The notes under the pieces: generated by a model | What the model saw: the letters and a program-made list of their open reading frames with translations, nothing else | Told to the model about the DNA's origin: nothing | Databases searched by the model: none | Translations under genes and position numbers: made by a program | In this document: piece by piece, positions 1-16,866 of the stretch | Layout of the letters: every line of letters begins with the position of its first letter | Numbering within the stretch: the stretch's first letter is position 1 | Virus record (IMG/VR): IMGVR_UViG_2698536401_000014 | DNA length: 26,367 nucleotides | Reading direction: 5' to 3' (one strand) | DNA from: a virus | Lineage: Duplodnaviria; Heunggongvirae; Uroviricota; Caudoviricetes

Positions 1-1017
1 TCACACTTCTAGCGTTGCGAGGGGGTTGAATCTCAGAGCCGTCTCAAGATGATCGGGTGCTAAATGGGCATAGCGCATAGTCATTTTTATATCGTGATGT
101 CCGAGGATTTTTTGCAAAGCAAGGATATTTCCACCCGACATCATGAAGTGCGCCGCAAACGTATGGCGCAGAACGTGTGTCAGTTGACCGCGAGGGAGCA
201 CGATAGACGTTTTTTCCATCACGGATAAAAATTGAAAATAGCAGTCTGTAAAGAAATTGAACCCATCAAGCGCCATGATCTCTTCGTAAAGCTCTTTACT
301 GATAGGGATGCTTCTGTTTTTCTTCCCCTTCGTTCTTACAAAGGTAATTCGGTATTTGGTCACTTGCGAGCGGGTAAGATTTATTGCTTCTCGCCAGCGT
401 GCGCCTGTGCTTAGGCATATCTTGACTACCAGTGCCAGAATTGGGTCCTGACGTTTGCAATCAGCCAGCAGTTCAACAATCTGCTCATGGGTAAGCCATG
501 CCATCTCTTTTTCTGCGATGGTGAATTTTCGCATGTTCTCCAGTGGGTTCGGATACGACCATTCGCCCAGGCGGGATAGTTCGCTAAAAACACTACTTAG
601 ATAGCTTTGCTCCAGGTTAATGGTGACCGGGCTTGCTCCTTTCTTCCATTTCTCGCTGAAGTAGATCTCACCTGTCAGGCGTTTATCTCGATAGTGGGCA
701 AACATTTTAGAGGTTAGATCAGTTGCAAGGGGATTGCCCAGAGCGTCAACCATCAACAGCAGTTTGTCATAGACATGCTGCCCAGCTGTCAGAGATTTAC
801 CATGTAGTTTGAACCATAGCTCAATCACGTCTTTCAATGTCCGACGATCCACTGATTCGCCCAGCCAGGGCTTTGCTTCGGTTTCTTCCATCGTGTGACG
901 CTCAAAAGCCAGAGCTTCGCCTTTGGTGGCGAATTGTTTACGCACACGACGTCCACTACGTCCGGCGGGGTAACATTCGCAAAGCCATTTTCCTGTGGTG
1001 AGTTTTCGTACTGCCAT
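1..1017 (-). CDS. int: Tyrosine integrase (P2/186 family)
   Basis: Minus-strand ORF with C-terminal catalytic motifs GARWREA, HVLRHTFA and MTMRYAHL (R..HxxR..Y pattern). N-terminus MAVRKLTTGKWLCECYP...RKQFATKGEALAFE resembles recalled phage 186 Int. Start placed at the internal ATG (1017); the six-frame ORF runs to 1095. Confidence 0.9.
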   Translation of the reverse strand: MAVRKLTTGKWLCECYPAGRSGRRVRKQFATKGEALAFERHTMEETEAKPWLGESVDRRTLKDVIELWFKLHGKSLTAGQHVYDKLLLMVDALGNPLATDLTSKMFAHYRDKRLTGEIYFSEKWKKGASPVTINLEQSYLSSVFSELSRLGEWSYPNPLENMRKFTIAEKEMAWLTHEQIVELLADCKRQDPILALVVKICLSTGARWREAINLTRSQVTKYRITFVRTKGKKNRSIPISKELYEEIMALDGFNFFTDCYFQFLSVMEKTSIVLPRGQLTHVLRHTFAAHFMMSGGNILALQKILGHHDIKMTMRYAHLAPDHLETALRFNPLATLEV

Positions 1018-1203
1018 AAAAAATGCCCTCCAGTAGAGAGCATTTTTACTGTATGTATAACCAGTGTCAATGTATGAAATCCTGCGACCATACATCTCAC
1101 TGAAACCATAATGAAGTTAGCTATTTTTTGCTATGTGAGTATGTGACTTTTGCGGTTAGCCTGCGGCTCATTGTTATATTAGGCGCAGATATAAAAGCAA
1201 AAT

Positions 1204-1395
1204 TTATCGCGAGTTTTTAGTACAGATTTTTTTTGATTTACTAATAGTTCCATCATTGCAAACGAACTTTCCATCGGAGGTACAGTGAGAGACACCTCCC
1301 TTTTTCCCAGAACAAGGATAATTTTTAGCATAGGTAGTTAGTGGGTTTAATAACAAAGAGCATGATAAAACCACAAAAAATACCTTACCAAGCAT
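1204..1395 (-). CDS. Small secreted cysteine-rich protein (possible lipoprotein), unknown function
   Basis: 63-aa ORF between cI and int. Hydrophobic N-terminus [11 protein letters not shown] resembling a signal peptide or lipobox, then a lysine-rich mature part with four Cys. No recognisable family. Confidence 0.4.
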
Positions 1396-1410
1396 AGTTT
1401 CCTCCCGGTA

Positions 1411-1980
1411 TTACCTAACGTACTTAATTGTTAAACTTATAATTTTCCCAATTATTTCAACATCTTCTATCTTGCACTCGAAGGCTCTGTTTCCACCCTC
1501 AACGAAGATTCTTCCACCGGGTAAACGAGTAATGTCACGGATCGTTATTTCGCCATCAATACTTATTACCCATTTACCATCACGTATATCATCAAATTCC
1601 TTATCACAAATAAATTCAGAATTATTATCTGTGATTACAAAAAGATTCTTGAATGCCGACGGTAGAAATTCTCTATCGAAAATATAAAAACCGTCTTCAC
1701 ACAAGGCCCCATCAGATAATACATATTTAGCAACTTCCATAGTATTTGTATTACCTGAAGTTTGCTTTGAACCATGCCCGGTTGTGAGCCAATTAAGCGA
1801 GGTGCCTGTTTCAAGGGCGCACTGGATTACCCATTCTGCTGGGAATGAGTCACGCATGTAGCGTGTGGCGAGTGTACTTTTAGAGATTCCTAAATGATCG
1901 CACAACGCCTGTCGAGTCTTGAATCCATAAGCTTCTACCATGCGCTCTATAGCGCCTCGTCCGCCTTTCTCCAAATTCAT
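1411..1980 (-). CDS. cI: Immunity repressor CI (186-type)
   Basis: N-terminal HTH-like region (EAYGF...ALETGTSLNWLTTG) and overall length resemble recalled phage 186 CI. Transcribed towards int and divergent from the apl/cII operon. Start at ATG 1980. Confidence 0.8.
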   Translation of the reverse strand: MNLEKGGRGAIERMVEAYGFKTRQALCDHLGISKSTLATRYMRDSFPAEWVIQCALETGTSLNWLTTGHGSKQTSGNTNTMEVAKYVLSDGALCEDGFYIFDREFLPSAFKNLFVITDNNSEFICDKEFDDIRDGKWVISIDGEITIRDITRLPGGRIFVEGGNRAFECKIEDVEIIGKIISLTIKYVR

Positions 1981-2105
1981 GGTCACTCCAAGTGAACTTT
2001 TATCTTGACGATTTCACTGTGCGATCGTATGTTTATGGTGTTCACAAAATACAAACGATCCGTATTCGTCCTGATTAATCATCATTAAACGAGGAATGTT
2101 GCATC
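1981..2105. promoter_or_regulatory. Lysis/lysogeny switch region between cI and the rightward early operon
   Basis: 125-bp intergenic region between divergent cI and apl-like genes. Candidate rightward promoter: TTGACG (2005-2010), 17-nt spacer, TATGTT (2028-2033). Contains ATCGTAT / ATCCGTAT direct repeats that may be operator half-sites. Confidence 0.4.
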
Positions 2106-2327
2106 ATGAGACCTAACATTTCAATCACTCTTACCACCCCTCATGTGACTATTGAACGCTATAGCGAGCTGACAGGGCTATCCATCGATACCATCAATGA
2201 CATGTTGGCTGATGGACGCCTTATCCGTCACCGTCTGCGCAAAGATAAAAAACGCGAAAAAGTGATGATCAACATAGCAGCAATGACCGTTGATGCGCTT
2301 TCAGAATGCAATCTAAACCTTAATTAG
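2106..2327 (+). CDS. Apl/Cox-like excisionase / transcriptional regulator (HTH)
   Basis: 73-aa first gene of the rightward early operon, in the position of 186 apl. Putative HTH ([18 protein letters not shown]). GAGGAA ribosome-binding site upstream of ATG 2106. Confidence 0.55.
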
Positions 2328-2359
2328 TTCGATTCTGAAATACATCAGAGGCATTGACC

Positions 2360-2869
2360 ATGTTTGATTACCAAGTTTCCAAACATCCACATTTTGATGA
2401 AGCCTGTCGTGCATTCGCATTGCGCCACAACCTGGTGCAACTGGCAGAACGTGCTGGCATGAATGTGCAGATTCTGCGGAACAAGTTGAACCCAGCGCAA
2501 CCTCATTTATTAACCGCACCAGAAATCTGGCTGCTTACCGATCTGACTGAAGATTCAACGCTGGTAGATGGTTTTCTGGCTCAGATTCACTGCCTGCCAT
2601 GCGTACCGATTAATGAGGTGGCAAAAGAGAAACTGCCACATTACGTCATGAGTGCAACCGCAGAGATCGGGCGTGTTGCTGCAGGTGCGGTATCTGGCGA
2701 TGTAAAAACCAGTGCAGGTCGTCGTGATGCTATCAGCAGCATTAACTCTGTAACACGACTGATGGCGTTGGCTGCTGTTTCATTGCAGGCCCGTTTACAG
2801 GCTAACCCTGCGATGGCGAGTGCAGTTGATACCGTGACTGGCCTCGGTGCTTCATTCGGTTTGCTGTGA
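2360..2869 (+). CDS. cII: CII-like lysogeny establishment regulator (186-type)
   Basis: 169-aa protein [24 protein letters not shown]...[33 protein letters not shown] closely matches recalled 186 CII. Start at ATG 2360. Confidence 0.8.
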
Positions 2870-2876
2870 GGTGCTT

Positions 2877-3077
2877 ATGCTGACGAAAGAACCATCATTT
2901 GCATCGCTGCTGGTAAAGCAAAGCCCGGCAATGCACTACGGCCACGGCTGGATCATGGGTGAGGATGGAAAACGCTGGCATCCGTGCCGTTCACAAGATG
3001 AATTGCTGGCAGAACTATCTACGAAAAAACGGGGGAACAAATGGCTATTGAAGGCGCTGCGGCGACTGTTCCATTAA
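2877..3077 (+). CDS. Small early protein (Fil-like position), hypothetical
   Basis: 66-aa ORF starting MLTKEPS with GAGGTG ribosome-binding site upstream. Position after cII matches the 186 fil/dhr region. Confidence 0.4.
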   Translation: MLTKEPSFASLLVKQSPAMHYGHGWIMGEDGKRWHPCRSQDELLAELSTKKRGNKWLLKALRRLFH

Positions 3078-3382
3078 GACCCGGTGAACGCCTGAATGGA
3101 CTTAATCATATTGCGGAGTTAAGGGCGAAAGTTTTTGGTTTGAATATTGAGTCAGAGCTTGAGCGGTTTATTAAAGATATGCGTGATCCACGGGATATCA
3201 ATAATGAACAAAATAAACGGGCACTGGCTGCCATATTCTTTATGGCAAAAATTCCAGCTGAACGTCATAGCATCAGCATTAATGAGCTGACCACTGACGA
3301 AAAGCGGGAGCTGATTAAAGCAATGAATCATTTTCGTGCAGTGGTGAGCTTATTTCCCAGACGGCTAACCATGCCGAATTAA
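3041..3382 (+). CDS. Hypothetical early-operon protein
   Basis: 113-aa ORF with a purine-rich GGGGGAACAA ribosome-binding site before ATG 3041. Same orientation as the early operon. Confidence 0.5.
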   Translation: MAIEGAAATVPLRPGERLNGLNHIAELRAKVFGLNIESELERFIKDMRDPRDINNEQNKRALAAIFFMAKIPAERHSISINELTTDEKRELIKAMNHFRAVVSLFPRRLTMPN

Positions 3383-3449
3383 CCAACTAATGAAATTAAT
3401 GGCGTAAACCCGCCGGGCATCCCTTTATCTAAATTCAGGAGAATTGCTT

Positions 3450-3683
3450 ATGCGTAATATTGAAACCCTCACGACCAAAACCGGACCGGATGATGCAGGT
3501 CTTAATCTTTTACTGACAGAGGCTCGTCTGGAAGAACGCCGGGCAAGGGCTGAAGCAATGGCTGCTCGCCTCGATAGCCTGGCGTGTCATATCACCTCCC
3601 GCCAGCTAAACCACGTCGAAGCGGCAGAACTGCTGCGTGTGACTGCTGAAGCAATCCAGAACGAAGCGCAGGAGATCCACTGA
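3450..3683 (+). CDS. Hypothetical early-operon protein (coiled-coil, Ala/Glu-rich)
   Basis: 77 aa. CAGGAG ribosome-binding site 8 nt upstream of ATG 3450. Its stop overlaps the next start (TGATGG). Confidence 0.5.
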   Translation: MRNIETLTTKTGPDDAGLNLLLTEARLEERRARAEAMAARLDSLACHITSRQLNHVEAAELLRVTAEAIQNEAQEIH

Positions 3684-3910
3684 TGGCTGATGCAATGGAT
3701 CTCGTACAGCAGCGCGTTGAAGAAGAACGCCAACGCCATATCCGTGCTGCCCGTGCCAAAACGCCGGGCGTGTCCCGCGTGCTTTGCGTTGAGTGTGAAG
3801 CGCCAATTCCGCCAGCACGCCGCCGTGCCATTCCTGGAGTGCAGCTTTGCATTACCTGCCAGGAAATCGCAGAGCTGAAAGGCAAACATTACAACGGAGG
3901 TGCTGTATGA
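3683..3910 (+). CDS. TraR/DksA-family C4 zinc-finger protein
   Basis: 75 aa with CVEC...(17)...CITC four-cysteine motif and an N-terminal coiled-coil-like segment. Translationally coupled upstream and downstream. Confidence 0.7.
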   Translation: MADAMDLVQQRVEEERQRHIRAARAKTPGVSRVLCVECEAPIPPARRRAIPGVQLCITCQEIAELKGKHYNGGAV

Positions 3911-4764
3911 GCACCATCCTGAAATGGGCGGGTAATAAAACCGCCATTATGTCCGAACTGAAAAAATACCTTCCTGCTGGCCCGCGACTGGTTGAACCTT
4001 TCGCGGGTTCTTGTGCTGTGATGATGGCGACGGATTACCCCAGCTATCTGGTTGCGGATATTAATCCTGATTTAATCAACCTCTATAAAAAGATTGCCGC
4101 TGATTGCGAAGCGTTTATATCTCGTGCCAAATTTTTATTTGAGGAAGCAAATAGTGAGCTGGCTTATTACAACATAAGACAGGAGTTTAATTACTCAACT
4201 GAAATTACTGATTTCATGAAGGCGATATATTTCCTGTATCTCAATCGTCACGGTTACCGTGGTTTATGTCGCTATAACAAGAGCGGGTATTTCAACATTC
4301 CCTACGGTAATTATAAAAATCCGTATTTCCCTGAAAAAGAAATTCGCGCATTTGCAGAGAAAGCCCAGCGGGCAACGTTTATCTGCGCGAGCTTTGATGA
4401 AACGCTGGCGATGCTGCAGGTGGGGGATGTGGTGTATTGCGATCCGCCGTATGACGGTACGTTTTCCGGCTATCACACTGATGGTTTCACTGAAGATGAC
4501 CAGTATCACCTGGCATCCATTCTTGAACATCGGTCATCAGAAGGACATCCGGTCATTGTTTCTAACAATGACACATCCCTGATTCGTTCGCTGTATCGCA
4601 ATTTTACTCACCACTATATCAAGGCAAAACGCAGCATCGGCGTGTCAGCTGGCGAGGGTAAATCTGCAACAGAAATCATTGCTGTTTCCGGGCCGAGCTG
4701 CTGGTTGGGATTTGATCCTTCGCGTGGCGTGGATAGTTCTGCCGTGTACGGAGTGTGTGTATGA
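3907..4764 (+). CDS. dam: DNA adenine methyltransferase (Dam-like, N6-MTase)
   Basis: [17 protein letters not shown] (SAM-binding FxGxG-like) and catalytic DPPY (CDPPYDG) motifs in Dam order. ATGA overlap with the preceding gene and with gene A. Confidence 0.85.
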
Positions 4765-7175
4765 GTCATGACGATATGAACAATTGCAGCGGCTTTAACG
4801 AGGCCGCCGCAGCATTTTCATGGAACGGCTCGAAAAAGGCCATTAACCCTTATCTGGACCCGGCGGAAGTTGCGCCGGAGTCTGCACTTTCAAACCTGAT
4901 CACTCTGTACGCTGCCGATAACGAGCAGGAACAACTGCGCCGCGAGGCACTGAGTGAGCAGGTCTGGGAGCGTTATTTCTTTAATGAATCCCGTGATCCT
5001 GTCCAGCGCGAAATGGAGCAGGATAAGCTCATTAGCCGGGCAAAGCTGGCGCATGAGCAGCAGCGTTTTAATCCGGACATGGTCATTCTGGCGGACGTAA
5101 ACGCCCAGCCTTCCCATATCAGCAAGCCGCTGATGCAACGTATTGAATACTTCAGCAGCCTGGGCAGGCCAAAGGCTTATTCCCGCTATTTGCGTGAGAC
5201 GATTAAGCCATGTCTGGAGCGACTGGATTGTGTACGTGACAGTCAGCTATCTGTTTCTTTCCGTTTTATGGCAAGCCATCAAGGGCTGGAGGGTCTGCTG
5301 ATCCTGCCTGAAATGAGCCAGGATCAGGTGAAACGCCTGTCCACCCTGGTAGCAGCGCATATGAGCATGTGTCTTGAGGACGCTTGTGGTGATTTGTATG
5401 CCACCGATGACGTTAAGCCAGAAGAAATCCGCAAGACATGGGAAAAGGTGGCAGCGGAAACCCTGCGTCTGGATGTTATCCCGCCTGCGTTTGAGAAACT
5501 TCGTCGGAAAAGAAACCGCCGCAAACCAGTGCCCTATGAACTCATCCCGGGTTCGCTGGCGCGTATGTTGTGTGCCGACTGGTGGTATCGGAAATTATGG
5601 AAGATGCGTTGCGAATGGCGGGAAGAGCAGTTGCGTGCTGTCTGCCTGGTCAGCAAAAAAGCATCCCCCTATGTCAGCTATGAAGCCGTGATGCATAAAC
5701 GTGAGCAGCGCCGTAAGTCGCGGGAGTTTTTTCGTTCTCATGAACTGGTGAACGAAGACGGCGACACGCTGGATATGGAAGATGTGGTAAACGCCAGCAG
5801 CAGCAACCCGGCGCATCGCCGCAATGAGATGATGGCCTGTGTTAAAGGTCTGGAGCTTATCGCGGAAATGCGCAGTGACTGTGCCGTTTTCTACACTATC
5901 ACCTGTCCGTCGCGTTTCCATTCCACGCTCAATAACGGCAGACCAAACCCGACCTGGACAAACGCGACGGTAAGACAAAGTAGCGATTATCTGGTCGGCA
6001 TGTTTGCTGCATTTCGTAAGGCTATGCATAAAGCCGAGTTGCGCTGGTATGGCGTGCGGGTAGCTGAGCCGCATCATGACGGTACTGTGCACTGGCATCT
6101 CATGTGTTTCATGCGTAAAAAAGACCGCGGCGCCATCACTGCATTACTGCGTAAGTTTGCCATCCGTGAAGACCGCGAGGAGCTGGGCAATAACACGGGA
6201 CCACGCTTTAAGTCTGAGCTGATAAACCCGCGCAAAGGTACGCCAACAAGCTATATCGCGAAATACATCAGTAAGAACATTGACGGGCGTGGTCTGGCTG
6301 GGGAGATCAGCAAGGAAACGGGTAAATCCCTGCGTGATAACGCTGAATACGTTAATGCCTGGGCGTCTCTGCATCGTGTTCAGCAATTCCGCTTCTTTGG
6401 CATTCCGGGGCGTCAGGCTTACCGTGAACTGCGATTGCTGGCTGGTCAGGCGGCAAGGCAACAGGGTGACAAAAAAGCAGGTGCGCCGGTACTGGATAAC
6501 CCGCGCCTTGATGCCATTCTGGCTGCTGCTGATGCTGGTTGTTTTGCCACCTATATCATGAAGCAGGGCGGCGTACTGGTTCCCCGTAAATATCACCTCA
6601 TCAGAACCGCTTATGAAATCAACGAAGAGCCAACCGCCTATGGCGATCACGGTATTCGTATTTATGGCATCTGGTCACCCATTGCAGAGGGCAAGATCTG
6701 CACTCATGCGGTGAAGTGGAAAATGGTTCGTAAGGCCGTTGACGTTCAGGAGGCGGCAGCCGACCAGGGCGCTTGCGCCCCTTGGACTCGTGGCAATAAC
6801 TGTCCCCTTGCTGAAAATTTGAACCAACAAGGGAAAGACAAATCAGCTGATGGGGATACCAGAACGGATATCACCCGCATGGATGACAAGGAGTTGCACG
6901 ATTACCTGCACAGTATGAGCAAAAAAGAGCGCCGGGAACTGGCAGCAAGGTTATGCTTGGTTAAACCGAAACGGCGTAAAGACTACAAACAGCGAATTAC
7001 AGACCATCAGCGACAGCAGCTCGTCTATGAGCTGAAGTCCAGAGGATTTGATGGTAGCGAGAAAGAGGTCGATTTACTCCTTCGCGGCGGCAGTATTCCG
7101 TCAGGAGCAGGCCTGCGTATCTTCTATCGGAACCAGCGTTTGCAGGAAGATGATAAGTGGCGGGATCTGTATTAA
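4761..7175 (+). CDS. A: Replication initiation endonuclease (P2 gpA-like rolling-circle initiator)
   Basis: 804 aa. HUH-type motif (VHWHLMCF) and paired active-site tyrosines (YIAKYISKN) typical of P2 A / phiX A-type Rep proteins. Position immediately before the SOS module and cargo region as in P2/186. Confidence 0.9.
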
Positions 7176-7267
7176 TTACGCGGGTTAACAATTCGTGCTC
7201 TTAATAATACCAGGCATATCAGGCTGATGAACGTAAAAAAACGTTTTACATCAGTAAGATTATTATA

Positions 7268-7287
7268 TACTGTGAATATAAACAGTG
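7268..7287. promoter_or_regulatory. LexA box (SOS operator)
   Basis: TACTGTGAATATAAACAGTG matches CTGT-N8-ACAG with an AT-rich spacer. Lies about 40 bp upstream of the 62-aa ORF and the DinI-like gene. Confidence 0.65.
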
Positions 7288-7327
7288 GTTATGTATACAG
7301 TATTGATTTGGTGTTATAGGAGGAAAG

Positions 7328-7516
7328 ATGCAGGACTATTTTTTGGAGTCTTTGAAGCTCCAGCGCATTGATTTTTTTCTTAAGCTTGTAGCGGCTAGTG
7401 AGTGTAGTGATGAAGAGAAGGGGCTGGCTTTGCAGTGGGTTTCTGAACTGACAGATGAACTCATGGCAAAAATCAGAAGCCACGAATACAACCGCTCAAT
7501 GGATGTCATCAGCTGA
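7328..7516 (+). CDS. Small SOS-operon protein (possible Tum-like antirepressor N-terminal component)
   Basis: 62-aa ORF with a strong AGGAGG ribosome-binding site 7 nt upstream of ATG 7328, directly downstream of the LexA box. Confidence 0.5.
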   Translation: MQDYFLESLKLQRIDFFLKLVAASECSDEEKGLALQWVSELTDELMAKIRSHEYNRSMDVIS

Positions 7517-7526
7517 GGTGACTTTT

Positions 7527-7760
7527 ATGCGCATTGAAATAATGATCGATAAAGAGCAGAAGATTAGCCAGTCTACCCTGGACGCCCTTGAATCCGAGCT
7601 TTACCGCAATCTGCGCCCCCTGTATCCCAAAACGGTAATTCGTATCCGCAAAGGTAGCTCTAACGGTGTGGAACTGACCGGACTGCAACTGGATGAAGAA
7701 AGAAAACAAGTGATGAAAATTATGCAGAAAGTGTGGGAAGACGACAGCTGGCTGCATTAA
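7527..7760 (+). CDS. DinI-family protein (Tum/DinI-like, SOS-regulated)
   Basis: 77 aa MRIEIMIDKEQKISQSTLDALESELYRNL...WEDDSWLH aligns by eye with DinI (MRIEVTIAK...ALAGEL...ETWESADDWF). GAGGTGA ribosome-binding site before ATG 7527. Confidence 0.75.
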   Translation: MRIEIMIDKEQKISQSTLDALESELYRNLRPLYPKTVIRIRKGSSNGVELTGLQLDEERKQVMKIMQKVWEDDSWLH

Positions 7761-7904: not shown

Positions 7905-9764
7905 TTAGTGAGGGCTGGTTATTACGTAGTCGCTCTGGTCATCCTCTCCCAGCCTCTCAGGTATTAAATCGTTGAAGGAAATAGTATTACTCTTAGGTTT
8001 TTCTTCAATTGGAAGTTCAGCTACCCTTAATTTGAGCGGCATGGGGCAGACGATACCACTAAAAATACAGGTTCCTGTAGATAGCGTTGGAATCGACTCT
8101 TCAGTCAGTCGATCTATATATGATACTGATTTTTCAATTGCGTACAGATCATTCTGATTAATAAGGCGATGAATAAAATAATTGTGTGCTTGGGATATGA
8201 TTGTCGACGATATATCATTAGGGCGTTGACTGGAAATTGTGATAAAAACTCCAAATTTTCTCCCCTCCTTTATGATTTCCTCAAAAGTTTCCAGACGATA
8301 ATCTCTCCAACTTTCCGTTTCCCGAAAAGAAGTATTAGACAAAATATTGTGGGCTTCATCTATAATAATGTGCAGTGTAGATTTCTCTGTAGACATTTTC
8401 TTCATATTGTAAGCCCACTTGGCTATCAAAAGAGGAAGCGTTTTTTTCATGGTTATATTAACCATATTTAGATTCACAACCGTGAAATTATGTTCACCCC
8501 AAAAATCAGACTGTCCGGAAGTATCAAATATTTTGGCTATATCTTTACGGTTAGCACTCATTCTATTTATAACTGGTGAAATATGTTCAGGGTTAGACTT
8601 GTTAGATAAATATTCCTGTATTAACTGTAAGTACATAAAGTCCAACAGTTCTTCAATCATATCAGTTTTAAATGAAAAATTGCTTGCAAGACTGAATAGA
8701 TAGGAGCGCTCAGTATCAGCTTCTGTATTGAAAATACTACCACCCCTCAATTTCCATTTATATGCAGTTGAATGATACTCAAGATCAGATATAAGTTCTG
8801 GGTCATCTTTGAAAATTGGGCTAAGAAACTGATTTATAGTATCGCATTTGGGTTTGTCGCTACTAAAGAGATTTTGTCTGACTTTTTTCTTCAGGATATT
8901 GCGCATAAACTCAAGAGGATTATCAGCGGTCATCACTTTCTTGCGAAACTCAAGAACTCTCTTCAGGAAAGGTTTCTGTGTTTTGTCTGTTGCATCGGTT
9001 AGAACTGAGAGCATATCATGCTCAAGTAGAACCTCTCTGGGTAGAGGAAGTTTGTCACCATTTGCATGGTGCGTGTTGAGATTATAAACCGTCTTCTCGT
9101 CAGTAATACAGCGTGGGGCAGTATATTCTCCATTAAAGTCGAATAGAATAAATTTGCATCTTTCACTAAAGTGGTTGCCGAGAATATGTTTAACTTGGGC
9201 AATACCTGCTTTGTATAGCGCGGCTAGGGTATTTGACTTTCCGCTGCCTGTATTACCGAAAATGGCAATGTGGGAATTAATAAGACCATTGATTGGTAGT
9301 GCAATTTCAATATCTTCAAGATCTGTACGAGTAAACCTCATTACAGTTTCGTCTGCATCAGCTATCTGATGAACCGTCTGTATCATCTCTTCAGTTACCA
9401 CGAAGACTTCATTGCCGATGAGAGGTAGTTCACGCGAACCACCAATGAAGCAACCAGTACGATCAATGTAACCCGTAAGAGTAGAGGTCAGGTATCGCCG
9501 ATATCGCCAGGCATCACTGCCGCTCCCAGCGAGATGTTTTTCCTCAATGATTCGTTCCGCTTCAACCTTGCCGATCAGGCTCATGAAACCTTTTTTGATC
9601 TCAATGAAGCTACCCACTGATACATTTCTTAGAACTTTTCCCTGATAAAACAAGTCACTGAGATTTTTGTTTTTATCGACCAAAATTGTCACAGCGCGTC
9701 CAGAAACCTCACAGACTTCGCCTATACGGAGCACCGCTTCCTCTTCAGTAAAATGCCTGCTCAT
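7905..9764 (-). CDS. herA: HerA-family ATPase (SIR2-HerA defence system, HerA component)
   Basis: 619 aa. Walker A IAIFGNTGSGKSNT and Walker B HIIIDEAHN in HerA/FtsK-like arrangement. Start ATG overlaps the SIR2 stop (ATGA). GGAGG ribosome-binding site 6 nt upstream. Confidence 0.8.
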   Translation of the reverse strand: MSRHFTEEEAVLRIGEVCEVSGRAVTILVDKNKNLSDLFYQGKVLRNVSVGSFIEIKKGFMSLIGKVEAERIIEEKHLAGSGSDAWRYRRYLTSTLTGYIDRTGCFIGGSRELPLIGNEVFVVTEEMIQTVHQIADADETVMRFTRTDLEDIEIALPINGLINSHIAIFGNTGSGKSNTLAALYKAGIAQVKHILGNHFSERCKFILFDFNGEYTAPRCITDEKTVYNLNTHHANGDKLPLPREVLLEHDMLSVLTDATDKTQKPFLKRVLEFRKKVMTADNPLEFMRNILKKKVRQNLFSSDKPKCDTINQFLSPIFKDDPELISDLEYHSTAYKWKLRGGSIFNTEADTERSYLFSLASNFSFKTDMIEELLDFMYLQLIQEYLSNKSNPEHISPVINRMSANRKDIAKIFDTSGQSDFWGEHNFTVVNLNMVNITMKKTLPLLIAKWAYNMKKMSTEKSTLHIIIDEAHNILSNTSFRETESWRDYRLETFEEIIKEGRKFGVFITISSQRPNDISSTIISQAHNYFIHRLINQNDLYAIEKSVSYIDRLTEESIPTLSTGTCIFSGIVCPMPLKLRVAELPIEEKPKSNTISFNDLIPERLGEDDQSDYVITSPH

Positions 9765-10804
9765 CTCGAGCCTCCCAGATAGCACGTGATAATGTTATTC
9801 ATTACCGGAAAATCAACATTTCTTCCCGGCCGATAAATAATCTCTACGTTTGAGTAATCCCGAAATTTCTCCATAAAGCCGTTAACACTGGCCTCATCGA
9901 AAGCAAAGATCAGTAGCTTCAGGGTGGCGTTGCGCAGGGCTTTTTTAGTTATCGTTTCAATGTGCTCATCAGCAAACGAGAACCCAAAGACAATTAGTAA
10001 AGTTGCTTCTTTATCAAGCTCGTTGGAATAGGTTCTCAGTAAATCATAATAAACGTTCTGTAGTAGAGTCTCTTTAAACTTCTCCTTACGTGGAAGAATA
10101 AGTGCATGAGCAAGTACCCATCCTTTCATTTCGGCTAGGGTGGGAAAGTCAAGCGGCTTAATATCTGCAATACGATAAATGATTTTCCCTTTAGAATGCT
10201 GCCAAGAGAGCGAACCATGAAGTTTTATAAGGTTAACAGTAGGAAGCTCAACTTTATAATTATACAGATTTCCGGTTGCACTTACAGAATGATTAAAGCT
10301 ACCCGCATCAAATTCCGCATCTCCCAAAATACTTGCTCTTCTATTGAATCCATCATTAAAAAGAATATTGTTATTACGTGTGGCAGCTTCTTCGATGAAT
10401 AAATCATAATTAGTTGTAAAAACGTTAATACGCCTCGGAAGTAGGCCAGTTCGGCGGCGGGTCAGTATCTTTTCCAGTGAAGACATAAATGCATCATAAT
10501 TTGCACGGGTACATTCCAAATCGGTGATCACCTGAGGTGCGAAGGGGGTGCCGTAGCCGCGCTTCAACATGCATTCATGAGGTAGCCAAACATCTGACAA
10601 AAAGTCAGCTGCCATCCTTAAGTATTCATCTTCCTGTTCATCATTAATAAGCTGCTGAAGATCCGTTTCGATTGTCCCCAGTACTTTAATCGCTGGGAGG
10701 GATGCACCTGATCCGATGAGAAAGTTAATGTTAGCTGACTGAAATATCCGCTCTAAGTAGTCTCGGTCACTATCGTTACCGTAGTATGCGCGCTTGACTG
10801 CCAT
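9761..10804 (-). CDS. SIR2-domain protein (SIR2-HerA defence system, putative NADase effector)
   Basis: 347 aa. SIR2-like motifs FLIGSGAS (Rossmann GxGxS), FTTNYD and KLHGS (catalytic His region), as in defence-associated SIR2 domains. Directly upstream of and translationally coupled to HerA. Confidence 0.75.
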   Translation of the reverse strand: MAVKRAYYGNDSDRDYLERIFQSANINFLIGSGASLPAIKVLGTIETDLQQLINDEQEDEYLRMAADFLSDVWLPHECMLKRGYGTPFAPQVITDLECTRANYDAFMSSLEKILTRRRTGLLPRRINVFTTNYDLFIEEAATRNNNILFNDGFNRRASILGDAEFDAGSFNHSVSATGNLYNYKVELPTVNLIKLHGSLSWQHSKGKIIYRIADIKPLDFPTLAEMKGWVLAHALILPRKEKFKETLLQNVYYDLLRTYSNELDKEATLLIVFGFSFADEHIETITKKALRNATLKLLIFAFDEASVNGFMEKFRDYSNVEIIYRPGRNVDFPVMNNIITCYLGGSR

Positions 10805-11228
10805 CTTATCCTTCCACAAAACATTGGATTAGTCTGTAATTTATTTAATCTTAACGCCGAGCTCAATACTTTAACATCACTTCTTCTGGCGATTGCTATG
10901 AGCCCTTCTTGATAAAAAGTTCGATCGGGAAACTGATCCTTTATGCCACAAGTTTTCTAGCTATCCTCAAAAAATTGGTGTTAAAACTGTGCCAACAAAG
11001 TTGCAAGGTTCGCTTCTCGCTCACAGCGAACTTTCATCTTTGTAAACCCGTATGATTCGCTTTTCAGCAGTCATTCAGATACGGATTTACGCTTCCCTTG
11101 GCAGCGCATGACTATGACGCATGAGATCGCATGATCGTTTGAGGATCGTTTTTGCTGAAGTCAGCCAGAACTGGCGTGCTTTTGCTTATGTCATGCAGGT
11201 GCATGAAAACCACTACATAAAGCGGGCA

Positions 11229-11247
11229 GGCGTGGCGGGGATACGAG
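11229..11247. other. Putative cos (cohesive end) site of the P2/186-type genome
   Basis: GGCGTGGCGGGGATACGAG resembles the recalled P2/186 cohesive-end sequences (GGCGAGGCGGGGAAAGCAC / GGCGTGGCGGGGAAAGCAT) in the first 13 nt. Lies on the portal-distal side of Q in the expected orientation. Confidence 0.4.
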
Positions 11248-11327
11248 CGCGCGCAAGTGGCTGAGTGGGGGGGAAGGCAAAACAAGCACCTGCAAGATGA
11301 TGGCTGAATGGAAAAGTTTGTTGAAAA

Positions 11328-13406
11328 ATGCTAATTTTAGAAACAACATATAAGTTTTTATCCACCTCGTTAAGGCTTTCTATGAGCAGTTTCTTTTATA
11401 TCCAGCCTGATTTAAAAAATGATACAAATGCTGATTTTTTGAACTCTGTTGAAGAGTATGCAAATACTCATCAAATGCAGATTTATGCAATAATGAATCC
11501 CTTAGGGGAAAATAAATATAAATATAATAGAGACGATGTTCTTATTATATTAAGCCCAGGATACCAATTAGCGTTCGTTGCTTTTAGTGATGATGTTGAT
11601 GGTATACAAAATTTTATAGAGGATTTTATAGAGGATTTAGGTTCCTTATCAGATAAATACAATTATAAAGATACAATTGGTAGGCCTCGAGCGTGGAAAG
11701 ATAAACTTGTTACTGAGTGCTCATACGCTGATTTTAGTTTCGGTAATCTTGATAAGTTTTTTGATGAAATTAAAATTATTGATGGTGTTCTGGCTAAAAA
11801 GAGTGAGTTAATTATCTCTCTCTTAACAGGAAGTATCAATAATATTGATAAAGTTAAAGGCAATGTGCCAGATAATATACTTGACAAGGTTAAGCAAAAG
11901 ATAATTTTGTTTGATGGAGATCAGACAAGGTTTGTATACCAAAAATTTGATAAGAAAAAAGTTGTTATTCAAGGATTATCAGGTACTGGTAAGACTGAAC
12001 TATTGCTTCATAAGTTAAAGGAAATATATTTGGATAAGGAGAATTTAAATAGTAAAATAATGTTTACGTGCCATAATAAAATATTGGCAGACAATATGAG
12101 AAAGAGAATTCCAGAGTTTTTCAACTTTATGAAGGTCGAGCAGCAGATTAGCTGGAATGAAAGACTTTGGTGTGTTAATGCATGGGGTTCTCAATATGAC
12201 GGTAACTCTGGCGCATATAGATATATATGTGAATATTATGGATTAAGTTTCTATCGTTTTAGCTATGTGATGACTTTCGATAAAGTATGTAGAATTGCGT
12301 TGGATGAACTAAAAAAGTTGCCAAGCAATGAATTTAAGCATTGCTTTGACTTTATGTTAATAGATGAAAGTCAGGATTTCCCATCAAGCTTCATTGAGCT
12401 TTGCGAGCTGGTAACTCGTGATACTATTTATGTTGCTGGTGATATATTTCAAAGTATATTTGATACTAATATCTCTAATGAGATACAGCCAGACTTTCTT
12501 CTAAGTAAATGCTACCGAACAGATCCAAGGACATTGATGTTTGCTCATGGTTTAGGTATGGGGCTATTTGAAGAAGAACCATTAACTTGGTTAATGAATA
12601 ATGAATGGGAAGCCTGCGGTTATATAGTTGATGAATCGGTAAAAGGTAAATTAAGATTAAAGAGAGAGCCACTAAGAAGATTTGAAGATGTAACGGATGC
12701 AAAAATACATAGTGTGGAATTAATTAATTCCACATATGAAACTGAAGAAGAGAATATTTTGGGTATACTCCGTAAAATTAAGGAGGAGAATCCTACTGTT
12801 TTGGCTGATGATATTGGTATCATCTTTATTGATCAGGCTAAGACTATATTTAAAATCGCAGACAGACTTGAATTGAGCGTGCCTAGATTATTAGGGTGGA
12901 AGGTTAATAAGGCATATGAAACAAAAGAAAAAATTAAAGATACGTTATTCATAAGTAATAAAAACCATGTAAAAGGGTTGGAGTTTCCTTTTGTTATCTG
13001 TGTTACTCGTGATATTATCAAGAGCCATTCTTATCGAAATTCACTATATATGATGTTAACTCGTTCCTTTATTAAATCATATTTGCTTTTGGGGGATGGG
13101 AATAAATACTTACAGAATGAGATAGAAAAGGGGTTAGATGTTATTAATGAGCATGGTTATATGGATATTAACGTTCCACCGAGAGAAGTTATTTCAAAAA
13201 TAAGAACAACAATCAAATATGATGAGAAAAATATATCTCATTATGATTTGGTTACAAAGGTCTTCGATGACTTACAGATTGAGCCGATATTTCGTACATC
13301 CCTGTATAATACAGTAAAAACAATCATGCCTGATTCTTTTGATGTCGATAAAATTACTACTCTTGTTCGGTTCAACTATGAAATAATGCTTCAGGAGTCG
13401 AAGTGA
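11328..13406 (+). CDS. SF1 (UvrD-like / DExQD) helicase-family ATPase with unassigned ~200-aa N-terminal domain; candidate defence protein
   Basis: 692 aa. Walker A VIQGLSGTGKTELL; Walker B/motif II FMLIDESQDF; CYRT (UvrD motif IV-like); HVKGLEFPFVI (UvrD C-terminal motif). No TOPRIM or obvious nuclease motif. Alternative start at ATG 11382. Region is very AT-rich relative to the phage backbone. Confidence 0.8.
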   Translation: MLILETTYKFLSTSLRLSMSSFFYIQPDLKNDTNADFLNSVEEYANTHQMQIYAIMNPLGENKYKYNRDDVLIILSPGYQLAFVAFSDDVDGIQNFIEDFIEDLGSLSDKYNYKDTIGRPRAWKDKLVTECSYADFSFGNLDKFFDEIKIIDGVLAKKSELIISLLTGSINNIDKVKGNVPDNILDKVKQKIILFDGDQTRFVYQKFDKKKVVIQGLSGTGKTELLLHKLKEIYLDKENLNSKIMFTCHNKILADNMRKRIPEFFNFMKVEQQISWNERLWCVNAWGSQYDGNSGAYRYICEYYGLSFYRFSYVMTFDKVCRIALDELKKLPSNEFKHCFDFMLIDESQDFPSSFIELCELVTRDTIYVAGDIFQSIFDTNISNEIQPDFLLSKCYRTDPRTLMFAHGLGMGLFEEEPLTWLMNNEWEACGYIVDESVKGKLRLKREPLRRFEDVTDAKIHSVELINSTYETEEENILGILRKIKEENPTVLADDIGIIFIDQAKTIFKIADRLELSVPRLLGWKVNKAYETKEKIKDTLFISNKNHVKGLEFPFVICVTRDIIKSHSYRNSLYMMLTRSFIKSYLLLGDGNKYLQNEIEKGLDVINEHGYMDINVPPREVISKIRTTIKYDEKNISHYDLVTKVFDDLQIEPIFRTSLYNTVKTIMPDSFDVDKITTLVRFNYEIMLQESK

Positions 13407-14032
13407 ATAAAGAGTATTATTTTAGTCTGGAGCAGGCTCAGTGTGACTGGGCCTTTAAGCCAATACGAACAAAGAAAGATGTTATTGAAATATTGATGAG
13501 ATTAATCAAACTAATTTCTGTTTATACAGAACCATGCGAACAGAATGTGGTTGGGAGAGTGAAACTTCATATATCAAAGATGAGTCGAGTTTTCTTCTTT
13601 AGTGAAAATAAATATTATTCTCTTGCATTTCCTTTTTTTCTTGATGAAATTAATGGTCAGATTTTATTTAGTAGTCCAGAAATGGAGTGTATAGATAGTT
13701 TTGTAACATCAAAAGTCATTTCTTTTATTAATGACTCCTCTTATTTGAATAGTTCTTCTTGGGCCTTTTTTGAACCATTGTTAAATATTGAAGAACATCA
13801 AGGTATTTCCGGGTTTTGGCCTTTTCTTAGAATGTTGTTAACTTATGAGGATGGTTATATTAGATATGATGTCGATGAAGAAAGGGCTAATGGAAATCGT
13901 CATCCATTATATCATTTCGACGTCTTTTATTCTAATCCGCCAACGTTTAAAATTGGTTTGAATGCACATTATACAAATGATGAAATGATTGATTTTCTTG
14001 ATAGGGAAACTGATTGTCGTTATTTGAAATGA
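13403..14032 (+). CDS. Hypothetical 209-aa protein, partner of the helicase-like ATPase (candidate effector/sensor)
   Basis: GTG start overlaps the helicase stop (GTGA), indicating translational coupling. Same AT-rich composition. No transmembrane segment or recognisable catalytic motif. Confidence 0.65.
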   Translation: MNKEYYFSLEQAQCDWAFKPIRTKKDVIEILMRLIKLISVYTEPCEQNVVGRVKLHISKMSRVFFFSENKYYSLAFPFFLDEINGQILFSSPEMECIDSFVTSKVISFINDSSYLNSSSWAFFEPLLNIEEHQGISGFWPFLRMLLTYEDGYIRYDVDEERANGNRHPLYHFDVFYSNPPTFKIGLNAHYTNDEMIDFLDRETDCRYLK

Positions 14033-14033
14033 T

Positions 14034-14065
14034 AAAATTTAGCTGGCATTAGCCAGCTAAATTTT
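14034..14065. terminator. Bidirectional hairpin terminator between the cargo cassette and portal gene
   Basis: Perfect 14-bp inverted repeat AAAATTTAGCTGGC-ATTA-GCCAGCTAAATTTT with A/T runs on both sides, immediately after both convergent stop codons. Confidence 0.6.
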
Positions 14066-14068
14066 AAT

Positions 14069-15100
14069 TTACATCGTCAATGAGTAATTTTTGAATTGTA
14101 TTATTGTATTGTCTAACCAATTATTTATTTCTTCGAGTATTTTTTGTAATGGAATAAGCTCATTACGCACAAATACATTCGCCGCCTTCTCCACATCCCC
14201 AAACCCCCCAACATTATTCGGCATAATCCCCATCATCTGTGGCGGTACACGATGCGCCGCCATCATATCATCACGGCTGACGTTCTTGATGTTAAGAAAT
14301 TCATCCTTTGCCGCGACTTCTGATAACGGGATAATCTGAAGACCATCCTTTTTGCCGTTAGGCGAGTACATAAACAGGTTGCGGAAATTGCCTGGGCCTT
14401 TGGCGCTTTTCATCGCATTACGGAGGTTGTTCACATCTTCCTGGTTCTGCGCGGCGTCGGTCATGTACATGATGAAGCCAGCATGACTGCCGTTAATGTA
14501 ATACTTGCGGCGGAACAGCGTGGCGGATTCGTTGAGCAGGGCGGATGGAATGGCAGAAAGATAACCGGGCAGGCCGTAGATCTCCTGGTTGATGTCCGGT
14601 TCCATCAGATGAAAAATGCTGCCTTTCGTGAACTGATACGGCTGGGCTGTCATACCGTATTGCACAAACCAGTAGGTATCCAGGTCTAATCCGCGTCGGG
14701 TGTATTTTGCCAAAGCTGGCTCAAGGGCGATAACTTCACCGAAGCGGTTCGTGCGTTTCTCCAGGTAGGCGTTACCAAATACCAGATAGTCCTGCACAAA
14801 ACGTGAAAAAGCCTGCTGGCTGAGCAGCGGGTGAGGGATGTAGGTGCTGGTCAGAATGTTGCACTTTACTGCAATCGGTGAGCTGTGATGCACGGCGGCG
14901 CGAAAGGTGCGCGCCAGCCCGTCGAAACTCACTGGCGGCTCATACCAGCGATCTGTCTGTACGCATTCCACATAGTCCAGCAGTTCGCGGCGGTCCAGAA
15001 CAGGAACGGGATCACCGAAGCTGAATGCTTCGGCTGAAGTCTGGCTTTTATGCTGGATCTGGTTCGTCGACGCAGCGCGGTTCTTCTTACTCTTTCCCAT
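14069..15100 (-). CDS. Q: Portal protein (P2 gpQ-like)
   Basis: 343 aa (recalled P2 Q is 344 aa). Leftward, adjacent to and coupled (ATGA) with the terminase ATPase gene. Position and orientation match P2/186. Confidence 0.85.
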   Translation of the reverse strand: MGKSKKNRAASTNQIQHKSQTSAEAFSFGDPVPVLDRRELLDYVECVQTDRWYEPPVSFDGLARTFRAAVHHSSPIAVKCNILTSTYIPHPLLSQQAFSRFVQDYLVFGNAYLEKRTNRFGEVIALEPALAKYTRRGLDLDTYWFVQYGMTAQPYQFTKGSIFHLMEPDINQEIYGLPGYLSAIPSALLNESATLFRRKYYINGSHAGFIMYMTDAAQNQEDVNNLRNAMKSAKGPGNFRNLFMYSPNGKKDGLQIIPLSEVAAKDEFLNIKNVSRDDMMAAHRVPPQMMGIMPNNVGGFGDVEKAANVFVRNELIPLQKILEEINNWLDNTIIQFKNYSLTM

Positions 15101-16866
15101 CAAAAAATCTCCACAATATTACTGGTATTGGCGGACTCGCCTTGCAGTGGTTCGTTAAACAGTGCGTGCATTGTTGCCCAAGCCAGATCGGCGTGGCTGG
15201 CTTCTTCGCTGCGGCTGGCTTCATAGGTCGGGCGGTTGCCGCTGGCGGTGGTGGCACGACGGATTGCCATAAAGGACTGTGCTATGTCGGTGTGTCCGGC
15301 GTCAAACTCCAGACGGCGGTGGCTGATAATGTCGTAAGCCTTGAGTACCAGGGCGTTTTTAACGTTGGGGTTGTAGACAAACTCCCGGACGGCAGGAAAA
15401 AACGCTTTCACGTTCTCGTAAACCCCGTGACCAACGCCGGTTGAGTCGATACCGATATAGGTCACATTGTACTGTTCGGTCAGTTTTTTGATGGCGTCAG
15501 CCTGGGCGCGAAAGTCCATCCCGCGCCACTGGTGACGCTCAAGAATGCGAAACTTACCGCCCGGCACGGCTGGCGGTGCCAGCACCACGCATCCGGCACT
15601 GTCGCCGTTCTGCGTACCTTTTGCCGGGTCATAACCGATCCACACTTCGCGCCAGCCAAATGGGCGCAGCGCCAGTGCATGAAAGTCGGTCCAGACTTCC
15701 CAGCTGTCCACCATGCACGCCTGCAGCTCGCTGAGCGGGAACACGGACGCGAGATCGTCCACAAACTCGCACATCAGCAGGTTCTGGTATTCGTCCGGGC
15801 TGTACTCCATGCGCAACTGGTCAAGGTCGAACAGGTTACAGCCGCCGCGCACTGCATCTTCCACGGTGACTATCTGGCGGTATTGCCCGTCTGCGCACAG
15901 CAGGCCGGGGGCCAGATTGCTGTGGGACAGGTCGATGTCCACCTTGTCGGCTTTGTTGCGCCCACGGTTGAACAGCGCACCGGACCAGAACGGATAAGCA
16001 CTGTGTGTCAGGCTGGATGGCGTGGAAAAATAGGTCTGCCGCCATTTCTTGTGAATAGCCATACCGGAAGCCACTTTGCGCAGCTCCTGGAATTTCGGTA
16101 TCCAGAAATATTCATCCAGATACAGGTTGCCGTGGTAACTCTGAGCCGTGCGGGCATTGGTGCCGAGGAAGTAAAGCGTGGCCCCGTTAGGAAGCACCAT
16201 CGGATCGCCTTTCAGCTCCACCTCGACTTCTTTGGCGAAGTCGATGATGTACTGCTTAAAGACGTGAGCCTGTGCCTTACTGGCAGAAAGGAAAATCTGG
16301 TTACGTCCGGTAAGCAGGGCGTCAATCAGGGCTTCACGGGCAAAGTAAAAGGTCGCGCCGATCTGGCGTGACTTCAGCAGATTACGGATGCGGTTGGTTT
16401 TTCCTGCTTCCCACCAGTGGCGCTGGTAGTTGAACATGGAGGAATGGAAGATTTCTTCCAGCTTCTCAATCTGTTCATCGGTGAAAACATTCTTTTCCGG
16501 CTGACGGCGCGGCCCTTTGTTGCGGTTGGCGACGTTAGGGTTTAAGTCGGCTTCGTTGCCGCCATTGTTAAACTTGCCGATCCGCGCGTGGCGCTCCGAC
16601 TGGCGCGCCAGCAGGTCAATTTCTTTGAAATCTTTCCCTTCTTTGTGCTCCTTCATAATGAGCTGGCAGTAGCGGGCGGCGGTGGTGAGCTGCATCTGAT
16701 CCAGCGGCCCATAGTCACCCCACTTGTCGCGTTTTTTCCAGCTGTGAACGGTTGCAACTTTCTCGCCCAGCATTTCAGCAATGCGGGCTACGCGGTATCC
16801 CTGAAAGTACAGCAGCATGGCCTGCCGACGGGGATCGAGATCTGCGGGTGTCAGTGTGGTGTTCAT
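15100..16866 (-). CDS. P: Terminase large (ATPase) subunit (P2 gpP-like)
   Basis: 588 aa (recalled P2 P is about 590 aa). Divergent from the scaffold/capsid operon as in P2. Confidence 0.85.
   Translation of the reverse strand: MNTTLTPADLDPRRQAMLLYFQGYRVARIAEMLGEKVATVHSWKKRDKWGDYGPLDQMQLTTAARYCQLIMKEHKEGKDFKEIDLLARQSERHARIGKFNNGGNEADLNPNVANRNKGPRRQPEKNVFTDEQIEKLEEIFHSSMFNYQRHWWEAGKTNRIRNLLKSRQIGATFYFAREALIDALLTGRNQIFLSASKAQAHVFKQYIIDFAKEVEVELKGDPMVLPNGATLYFLGTNARTAQSYHGNLYLDEYFWIPKFQELRKVASGMAIHKKWRQTYFSTPSSLTHSAYPFWSGALFNRGRNKADKVDIDLSHSNLAPGLLCADGQYRQIVTVEDAVRGGCNLFDLDQLRMEYSPDEYQNLLMCEFVDDLASVFPLSELQACMVDSWEVWTDFHALALRPFGWREVWIGYDPAKGTQNGDSAGCVVLAPPAVPGGKFRILERHQWRGMDFRAQADAIKKLTEQYNVTYIGIDSTGVGHGVYENVKAFFPAVREFVYNPNVKNALVLKAYDIISHRRLEFDAGHTDIAQSFMAIRRATTASGNRPTYEASRSEEASHADLAWATMHALFNEPLQGESANTSNIVEIF

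Follow-up and report, generated by a model that had tools for sequence, protein, structure and literature searches.

An STM2767/STM2766-family helicase-partner pair beside cos in a P2-like prophage, a probable anti-phage module related to Helicase+DUF2290

A two-gene cassette between cos and the portal gene

The DNA analysed here is IMG/VR record IMGVR_UViG_2698536401_000014, a stretch of 26,367 nucleotides (nt) to which we refer at its full length as the window. It is a P2/186-like prophage that carries, between its cos site and the portal gene Q, a cassette of two genes encoding a superfamily 1 (SF1), UvrD-like helicase of the STM2767 family and a 209-amino-acid (aa) partner protein of the STM2766 family. 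We argue below that this pair is probably an anti-phage defence module related to the Helicase+DUF2290 system. An initial annotation, made from the letters of the sequence, had described two open reading frames (ORFs) joined by a GTGA overlap, a set of helicase motifs comprising GLSGTGKT, LIDESQDF, CYRT and KGLEFPFV, an AT-rich composition, a position between cos and the portal gene and a perfect hairpin at the end of the cassette. All of these features, including all four motifs, were found in our analysis (Table 1).

The guanine-cytosine (GC) content of the helicase-partner cassette is 32%, that of the structural genes of the prophage 56%, and that of the SIR2-HerA cassette lying on the other side of cos 40%. 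The GTG start codon of the partner overlaps the stop codon of the helicase, and an AGGAG sequence is located 5 nt upstream of the GTG. The core sequence GGCGTGGCGGGGA, which we take to be the P2/186 cos, occurs a single time in the window, at position 11229, so that the cassette does lie between cos and Q. The pattern GGCGWGGCGGGGA also has one occurrence in the window, where chance would give 0.02.

The 692-aa helicase of the initial annotation exists as an ORF, but translation more likely starts at the ATG at 11382, giving a protein of 674 aa. This start is favoured because it is the one annotated in RefSeq, because the NCBIfam helicase model matches the 692-aa form only from its residue 20 onwards, because the homologues listed are mostly 665-690 aa long, and because an AAGG sequence is located 8 nt before this ATG. 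The 692-aa form is present in 14 NCBI contigs among the clusters listed (P0084, P0095 and P0098). A scan of the leader and presumed promoter region with the sigma-70 consensus found no site upstream of the helicase gene. At the other end of the cassette, the hairpin between the convergent partner and portal genes has an RNA folding energy of -20.8 kcal/mol (z = -6.99), and none of 200 shuffled sequences folds as well. It was not called by a consensus terminator scan; it is probably a bidirectional terminator.

Table 1. Features of the cassette and of the surrounding prophage, in window coordinates.
Feature	Position	Strand	Remarks
Dam-like orphan DNA adenine methyltransferase	3847-4764	+	PADLOC oMTase PDLC03729, 1.9e-109; directly upstream of gpA
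Replication endonuclease gpA	4755..7175		
HerA	7905..9785	-	PADLOC PDLC04097, 6e-267
SIR2	9761..10819	-	PADLOC PDLC04080, 6e-211
cos core, P2/186-type, GGCGTGGCGGGGATACGAG	11229..11247	+	Left edge of the cargo slot, outside the cassette proper
Upstream leader and presumed promoter region	11248..11381	+	Includes ATG 11328
Long-form helicase ORF, 692 aa	11328..13406	+	Alternative ATG 11328
STM2767-family SF1 (UvrD-like) helicase, 674 aa	11382..13406	+	NCBIfam NF053713, Pfam, PADLOC, hhalign
Helicase N-terminal alpha/beta domain, ca. residues 1-153	11382..11840	+	Weak restriction-endonuclease-like fold
SF1 motor motifs	11973..12995	+	
Walker A GLSGTGKT, Lys204	11973-11996	+	
Motif II LIDESQDF	12357-12380	+	
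Motif GDIFQ	12435-12455	+	
Motif CYRT	12510-12521	+	
Motif KGLEFPFV	12972-12995	+	
STM2766-family helicase-associated protein, 209 aa	13403..14032	+	GTG start; NCBIfam NF053714
Partner conserved C-terminal core	13847..13957	+	E149-D-G-Y-I-R154-Y-D156-x-D158...H167-P-x-x-H171-x-D173...K183-x-G185
Perfect 15-bp-stem hairpin	14033..14066	.	Between convergent partner and portal genes
Portal gene Q	14069..15103	-	
Terminase gene P	15100..16866	-	

The helicase and its partner

Both proteins are full-length members of NCBIfam families, above the curated cutoffs. The helicase scores 988.7 bits against NF053713 (STM2767 family DEAD/DEAH box helicase; cutoff 550), with residues 20-687 covering model positions 2-665 of 665, and the partner scores 212.1 bits against NF053714 (STM2766 family helicase-associated protein; cutoff 70), with residues 3-209 covering positions 1-207 of 207. 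The two families take their names from two genes of Salmonella Typhimurium LT2, and the same names are used by RefSeq for the proteins in Escherichia coli N9. They are naming families, which assign neither a function nor a defence role nor a link to DUF2290.

In Pfam, the helicase matched UvrD_C_2, UvrD-helicase and AAA_19, that is, generic SF1 domains only, and a sequence search of the chains of the Protein Data Bank (PDB) with it gave nothing significant. The five SF1 motor motifs of Table 1 are invariant or nearly so in 30 homologues. To the N-terminal part of the protein, which the initial annotation had been unable to assign, a weak restriction-endonuclease-like fold could be ascribed. 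We considered an active NERD or PD-(D/E)xK nuclease in this domain and rejected it, because no conserved D...(D/E)xK catalytic motif was found there in the 30 homologues.

The partner belongs to a family of 792 clusters at 50% identity (E<=1e-3). The 150 of these with the best scores consist chiefly of proteins of about 205-230 aa that stand alone, some few of them truncated. In 145 diverse members of the family, residues R62, R154, D158, H167, P168, D173 and K183 are invariant and E149, G151, Y152, D156, H171 and G185 nearly so. The AlphaFold2 model of the partner is confident (predicted local distance difference test 87, predicted template modelling score 0.85), and places the invariant Arg/Asp/His/Lys cluster on the last three beta-strands of the protein. 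The C-terminal core is a putative metal-binding or catalytic site. A Foldseek search of BFVD with the model gave nothing at E<=0.001, a profile search of the PDB chains with the partner alignment gave nothing significant, and PADLOC 2.0, which has no model for the partner, gave no match to it.

A co-evolving pair in many bacterial groups

A scan taking one genome per species rendered 78 loci, of which 57 intact pairs were analysed. The loci span Gamma- and Betaproteobacteria, Campylobacterota, Bacteroidota, Cyanobacteria, Lachnospiraceae, Bacilli, Aquificota, Coriobacteriia and one bacterium of the candidate phyla radiation. A helicase of the STM2767 type lies directly upstream of the partner gene, on the same strand, in almost every locus in which the contig allows it to be seen, and the intergenic gap is between -20 and +15 nt in 56 of the 57 intact pairs, the commonest values being -4, -1 and +1. 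Across these pairs the helicases are on average 49% identical and the partners 37%, and a Mantel test shows that pairwise identities in one protein go with those in the other (r = 0.885, p = 0.001). Helicase and partner are a conserved, co-evolving two-gene module. A third conserved gene was not found: among the 119 nearest flanking proteins, with 149 Pfam families, no family occurred in >5.

The genes found at the flanks of the pair include type I, type III and type IIG restriction-modification (R-M) systems, PbeA (three times), mads, NERD+UvrD and GajB-like helicases, RtcR-CARF, integrases and transposases. In Klebsiella and Enterobacter the pair lies at the cargo end of elements with an integrase and a D5 primase that resemble P4-like satellites, and in Emticicia it is preceded by a gene for a helix-turn-helix-M78 peptidase. 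A pair 36% identical to that of the window is located at positions 5019-7639 of locus L100, from the conjugative dairy plasmid pUL021B of Lactococcus lactis (NZ_CP070265.2), about 2 kb downstream of a gene for the PepG1 type I toxin and just upstream of a helicase-family gene and two DNA methyltransferase genes that resemble a type III R-M system. Identical copies of this pair are found on two dairy plasmids of 'Lactococcus sp.' (NZ_PP589700 and NZ_PP589908).

Among viral sequences, 12 contigs of IMG/VR carry the pair, and 4 of these are diverged P2-like phages in which it adjoins the portal gene Q. The helicase is 77-78% identical to that of the window in two of them (L088 and L089), 62% in L091 and 54% in L098, the identities of portal and terminase being 81-88%, 62-63% and 62-64%, respectively. 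In L098 the pair and Q are on the same strand and not convergent. Since the helicase has diverged about as far as portal and terminase in these four contigs, there are hints of a long residence of the pair in some P2 lineages rather than of recent swaps. The isolated phage genomes of INPHARED gave no match to the cassette, either in DNA or in protein.

The helicase gene is split in Xanthomonas translucens (L019), in a metagenome-assembled genome (MAG) of the Moraxellaceae (L035) and in Campylobacter concisus (L036), the partner ORF being apparently intact in all of them. It is split also in a Sulfurovum MAG (L077), where the partner ORF was not detected. These split helicases suggest that the system can decay without lethal consequences.

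A tightly coupled, co-evolving operon that is carried on plasmids and prophages might also be expected of a toxin-antitoxin or addiction-like module, in which a toxic partner would be restrained by the helicase, or the reverse, and no dedicated sensing of phage would take place. The invariant, catalytic-looking residues of the partner and the vicinity of one Lactococcus copy to a type I toxin gene would be in keeping with such a module. We nevertheless hold it to be very improbable, as a 674-aa ATP-dependent helicase with conserved motor motifs would make an atypical antitoxin, and no match to known toxin-antitoxin families was obtained with PADLOC, Pfam or NCBIfam. Moreover, the partner stays apparently intact beside the decayed helicases of L019, L035 and L036, so that a lethal toxin left unchecked is unlikely.

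The P2-like prophage and its cargo slot

From left to right, the window contains genes for an integrase, CI, a Dam-like methylase, gpA, HerA and SIR2, then cos, the helicase pair, Q, P, and the capsid and tail genes. In the prophage of E. coli N9, a DNA adenine methylase gene is found at the position equivalent to that of the Dam-like gene. SIR2-HerA is a complete, known anti-phage system, located on the gpA side of cos as the immediate neighbour of the helicase pair, and is a second, independent cargo of the same P2 hotspot.

The interval between gpA and gpQ, beside cos, has been described by Rousset et al. (2022, PMC9122126) as a defence hotspot of P2-like prophages, with 1,650 arrangements in 18,150 loci, and the window has the corresponding organization, with variable cargo beside cos and the conserved gpA and gpQ on either side. 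In the portion of their Table S5A that we considered, the arrangement of the window appears as 'hypothetical + AAA_19/UvrD_C_2 + hypothetical + SIR2_2 + DUF87 + DinI', a second locus carries WP_001031670, and the arrangement occurs only twice. Nothing resembling the helicase-partner arrangement was found among the systems that these authors cloned, nor any sign that they tested it. The view of the initial annotation that the cos-Q slot normally holds no genes does not stand for natural P2-like prophages, as the slot lies within this published hotspot and is occupied by other cargo in E. coli 89-3156 (NZ_CP027366.1). In that strain the same SIR2-HerA/cos flank is followed, before Q, by a two-gene cassette encoding a 304-aa hypothetical protein and a 246-aa HIRAN-domain protein (positions 3401-5052 of locus L101). 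The presence of a different cassette between the same flanks indicates that the cos-Q slot is a site of swapping, and the cassette of 89-3156 is itself another, uncharacterised candidate.

Of the 5426 complete E. coli genomes, just 5 carry the helicase-partner cassette. Some part of the query is matched by 1276 genomes, chiefly the cos-proximal flank, and among the 1281 E. coli records with a match most cover only the flank at 11000-11258. Taken together with its composition, these sequence comparisons support the view that the pair is foreign accessory cargo of the P2-like prophage.

It could be argued that the pair serves the mobile element itself, for instance as a helicase for replication, recombination or the processing of DNA ends, perhaps near cos, together with an accessory factor, on behalf of P2-like phages, P4-like satellites or plasmids. 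UvrD-like helicases are classic enzymes of repair and replication, the pair is found on or beside mobile elements (P2-like phages, integrase-primase islands and conjugative plasmids), and in diverged P2-like contigs it has kept its position next to Q while diverging about as much as portal and terminase. However, it is missing from nearly all P2-like prophages that have the same cos flank (5 genomes, versus the 1276 that match some part of the query), a different cassette takes its place in 89-3156, and its GC content is strongly atypical with respect to the backbone. In addition, many loci lie in ordinary chromosome beside R-M genes with no phage genes nearby, and the closest characterised relative of the helicase is a defence helicase. 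A role on the side of the element is thus unlikely.

A further possibility is that the pair takes part in conflicts between elements, excluding related P2-like phages or interfering with helpers or P4-like satellites that have the cos and packaging machinery in common. Such a role would fit where the pair is found, beside cos and Q in P2-like phages and, in satellites that are P4-like or bear a primase, at the cargo end, and systems of the hotspot can act against relatives of P2 (Rousset et al. 2022, PMC9122126). We regard it as quite unlikely that this is what the pair is for, since the family occurs in phyla without elements of the P2/P4 type (Cyanobacteria, Lachnospiraceae, Bacteroidota and Campylobacterota) and its neighbours are general defence genes; it would, besides, be a special case of defence and not a true alternative to it.

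Relationship to the Helicase+DUF2290 system

Helicase+DUF2290 ('Rst_HelicaseDUF2290' in DefenseFinder) was validated from a P4-like satellite of Klebsiella pneumoniae, with T7 as the phage it gives protection from (Rousset et al. 2022, PMC9122126). As a reference we used the locus of Bacillus cereus VD115 (locus L009), with the sequence given in Table S6 of that study. The helicase of this locus matches the PADLOC model PDLC03002 ('Helicase') over its full length (3.9e-152, model positions 12-682), which confirms PDLC03002 as the model of the Helicase+DUF2290 helicase. The same model is the best PADLOC match of the window helicase, at 3.5e-28 and over positions 178-355 of 707 only. Aligned directly, the window and B. 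cereus helicases are 27% identical over 287 residues in BLASTP (3e-20), and hhalign relates them with a probability of 99.5% (E = 2.5e-23) over 459 columns that run through the C-terminal tail. By these alignments the window helicase is a clear but distinct relative of the Helicase+DUF2290 helicase.

The relationship between the partners is more remote. The B. cereus DUF2290 protein has IRYD-x10-HPVSHIH...R where the window partner has IRYD-x10-HPLYHFD...K. At the level of families, hhalign of STM2766 against DUF2290 gave probabilities of 61-78%, the highest over 44 columns, and pairwise E-values of 2e-5 to 8e-5; 43-47 columns were aligned, the invariant residues among them. Pfam DUF2290 is weakly matched by 28 of the 145 diverse partner-family members (best 2.2e-6), always at protein residues ca. 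148-200 and model positions 117-165 of 204, any other Pfam family being matched by at most 2 members. Alignments with low mact and in global mode in hhalign gave no confident extension beyond this C-terminal core. We conclude that STM2766 is a sister family to DUF2290, if a remote one, or has at the least a conserved core in common with it; by current models, STM2766 is not a DUF2290 member.

The initial annotation had left two options, a system of the helicase-DUF2290 type or an uncatalogued family, and the outcome lies in between, as both genes are remote relatives of that system although the partner falls outside DUF2290 itself. The pair is not uncatalogued in the strict sense, given that NCBIfam equivalogs exist for both proteins and that its arrangement appears in Rousset Table S5A. 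Being a named NCBIfam pair, included in the hotspot tables of Rousset et al. and remotely related to Helicase+DUF2290, the locus is not categorically new. In the literature searched, we did not find the link between STM2766 and DUF2290, the breadth of this branch, or its omission from PADLOC 2.0.

A probable role in anti-phage defence

The proposal of the initial annotation that the cassette is a defence system is partly supported, by context and by homology. The P2 hotspot, the company of defence genes in other genomes, the constant pairing and the homology of the helicase to a DUF2290-associated helicase together make it probable that the pair is a self-contained anti-phage defence module, a divergent sister of Helicase+DUF2290, which a P2-like prophage carries in its hotspot beside cos.

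Several observations weigh against this interpretation. The locus would not be recognised as a defence system by PADLOC 2.0, and the window partner has no Pfam match at E<=10, DUF2290 included. The family-level link between partner and DUF2290 is confined to about 45 residues, and when 10 members were inspected singly 4 had a DUF2290 match, of 17.1-21.3 bits, under the Pfam cutoff of 25 bits. No recognisable enzyme fold was found for the partner in the structure and PDB searches, and the helicase, having no conserved catalytic motif in its N-domain, does not qualify as a PD-(D/E)xK/NERD nuclease-helicase of the Nhi-like kind. The literature search on STM2766/STM2767, DUF2290 and NERD/UvrD two-gene systems found no functional study of STM2766/67. 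A DUF2290/Helicase system predicted by PADLOC/DefenseFinder on lactococcal plasmids failed to protect from those lactococcal phages with which it was challenged (PMC11381338); the lactococcal STM2766-like partner, for its part, is not recognised by the PADLOC DUF2290 models. Finally, that the divergence of the pair tracks that of portal and terminase in the diverged P2-like phages could mean that it has long been carried for a function on the side of the phage.

Based on the coupled and co-evolving operon, the conserved motor, the invariant cluster of the partner, the homology to a system active against T7 and the contexts of hotspot and defence islands, we infer for the defence module an effector licensed by the helicase. 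Helicase and 209-aa partner would be made in a fixed ratio from the translationally coupled operon and would act as a complex, in which the ATP-driven helicase would survey DNA and its non-catalytic, restriction-endonuclease-like N-domain might help to recognise a feature specific to infection, such as free ends or replication intermediates. This recognition would activate or release the partner, whose RYD...HPxxHxD...K cluster would be the effector site, most plausibly that of a metal-dependent hydrolase and probably of a nuclease, and the outcome would be either a block of phage replication or abortive infection. The assignment of the sensor role to the helicase and of the effector role to the partner is tentative, much less certain than the defence reading, and made by analogy; calling the partner an effector is in fact a guess, because no recognisable enzyme fold was found for it.

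A wider and rather speculative idea is that STM2766, which alone has at least about 700 clusters at 50% identity across many bacterial phyla, and DUF2290 form one large superfamily of metal-dependent effectors with a new fold and an RYD...HPxxHx[D/H] site, licensed by an SF1 helicase that reads an infection-specific state of the DNA. If this were true, a widespread mechanism of helicase-guided immunity with undescribed chemistry would exist, and its STM2766 branch would escape PADLOC 2.0, the only defence-finder library that we used.

If the variant is active, the Helicase+DUF2290 class would be much larger than now annotated, and defence counts based on PADLOC 2.0 would miss the pair, since PADLOC 2.0 misses the STM2766 branch. 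The pair offers a compact handle of 2.7 kb, native to E. coli, on a system of the Helicase+DUF2290 type, and the alignment of the two partner families singles out a few residues for mutagenesis (R154, D156, D158, H167, H171, D173 and K183). It may also bear on Salmonella, where many monophasic 4,[5],12:i:- lineages have lost by deletion the fljAB-adjacent region STM2757-STM2773, which includes STM2767 (PMC7767384). From the numbering of the locus tags, STM2766 is presumed to lie beside STM2767, so that these lineages would lack the pair, and if it is active they may differ in their susceptibility to phages.

Comparison with known systems

With Gabija and the NERD+UvrD candidates (PADLOC C3a187), which can be grouped with Gabija GajB as near systems, the pair has the UvrD-type motor in common. 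The window helicase matches the GajB models weakly (8e-07), in short stretches around the motor motifs, and the cassette has no gene of the GajA-like (OLD/TOPRIM) type that would make it a Gabija system.

A likeness of another kind exists to Hachiman, in which, as described by Tuck et al. (2024, PMC12278908), the helicase HamB restrains the nuclease HamA or releases it upon sensing abnormal DNA. There too a helicase sensor is co-expressed with a small effector whose function was previously unknown. However, the window proteins are unrelated to those of Hachiman, with no match to HamA or HamB in PADLOC or to DUF1837 in Pfam, so that the analogy is one of logic only.

The closest system is Helicase+DUF2290, for which no mechanism was found in the literature searched. 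It differs from the window pair in several respects. The N-terminal domains of the window and B. cereus helicases do not align, that of B. cereus being annotated as NERD in Rousset Table S6 whereas that of the window is restriction-endonuclease-like without the motif, and the full-length match of the B. cereus helicase to PDLC03002 contrasts with the ca. 180 of 707 positions covered by the window helicase. The window partner matches neither Pfam PF10053 at >=25 bits nor PADLOC PDLC02998/02999, by which a DUF2290 partner would be recognised. On the other hand, the layout is the same in both, a helicase of about 670-720 aa coming first and a partner of about 210-240 aa overlapping its end, with an ATGA overlap of 4 nt into a 243-aa partner in B. 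cereus and the GTGA overlap in the window. Prophage hotspots, including those of P2 and P4, house both Helicase+DUF2290 and the STM2766/67 pair, and the two partner families have the co-linear C-terminal motif [IV]RYD-x10-HPxxHx[HD] in common.

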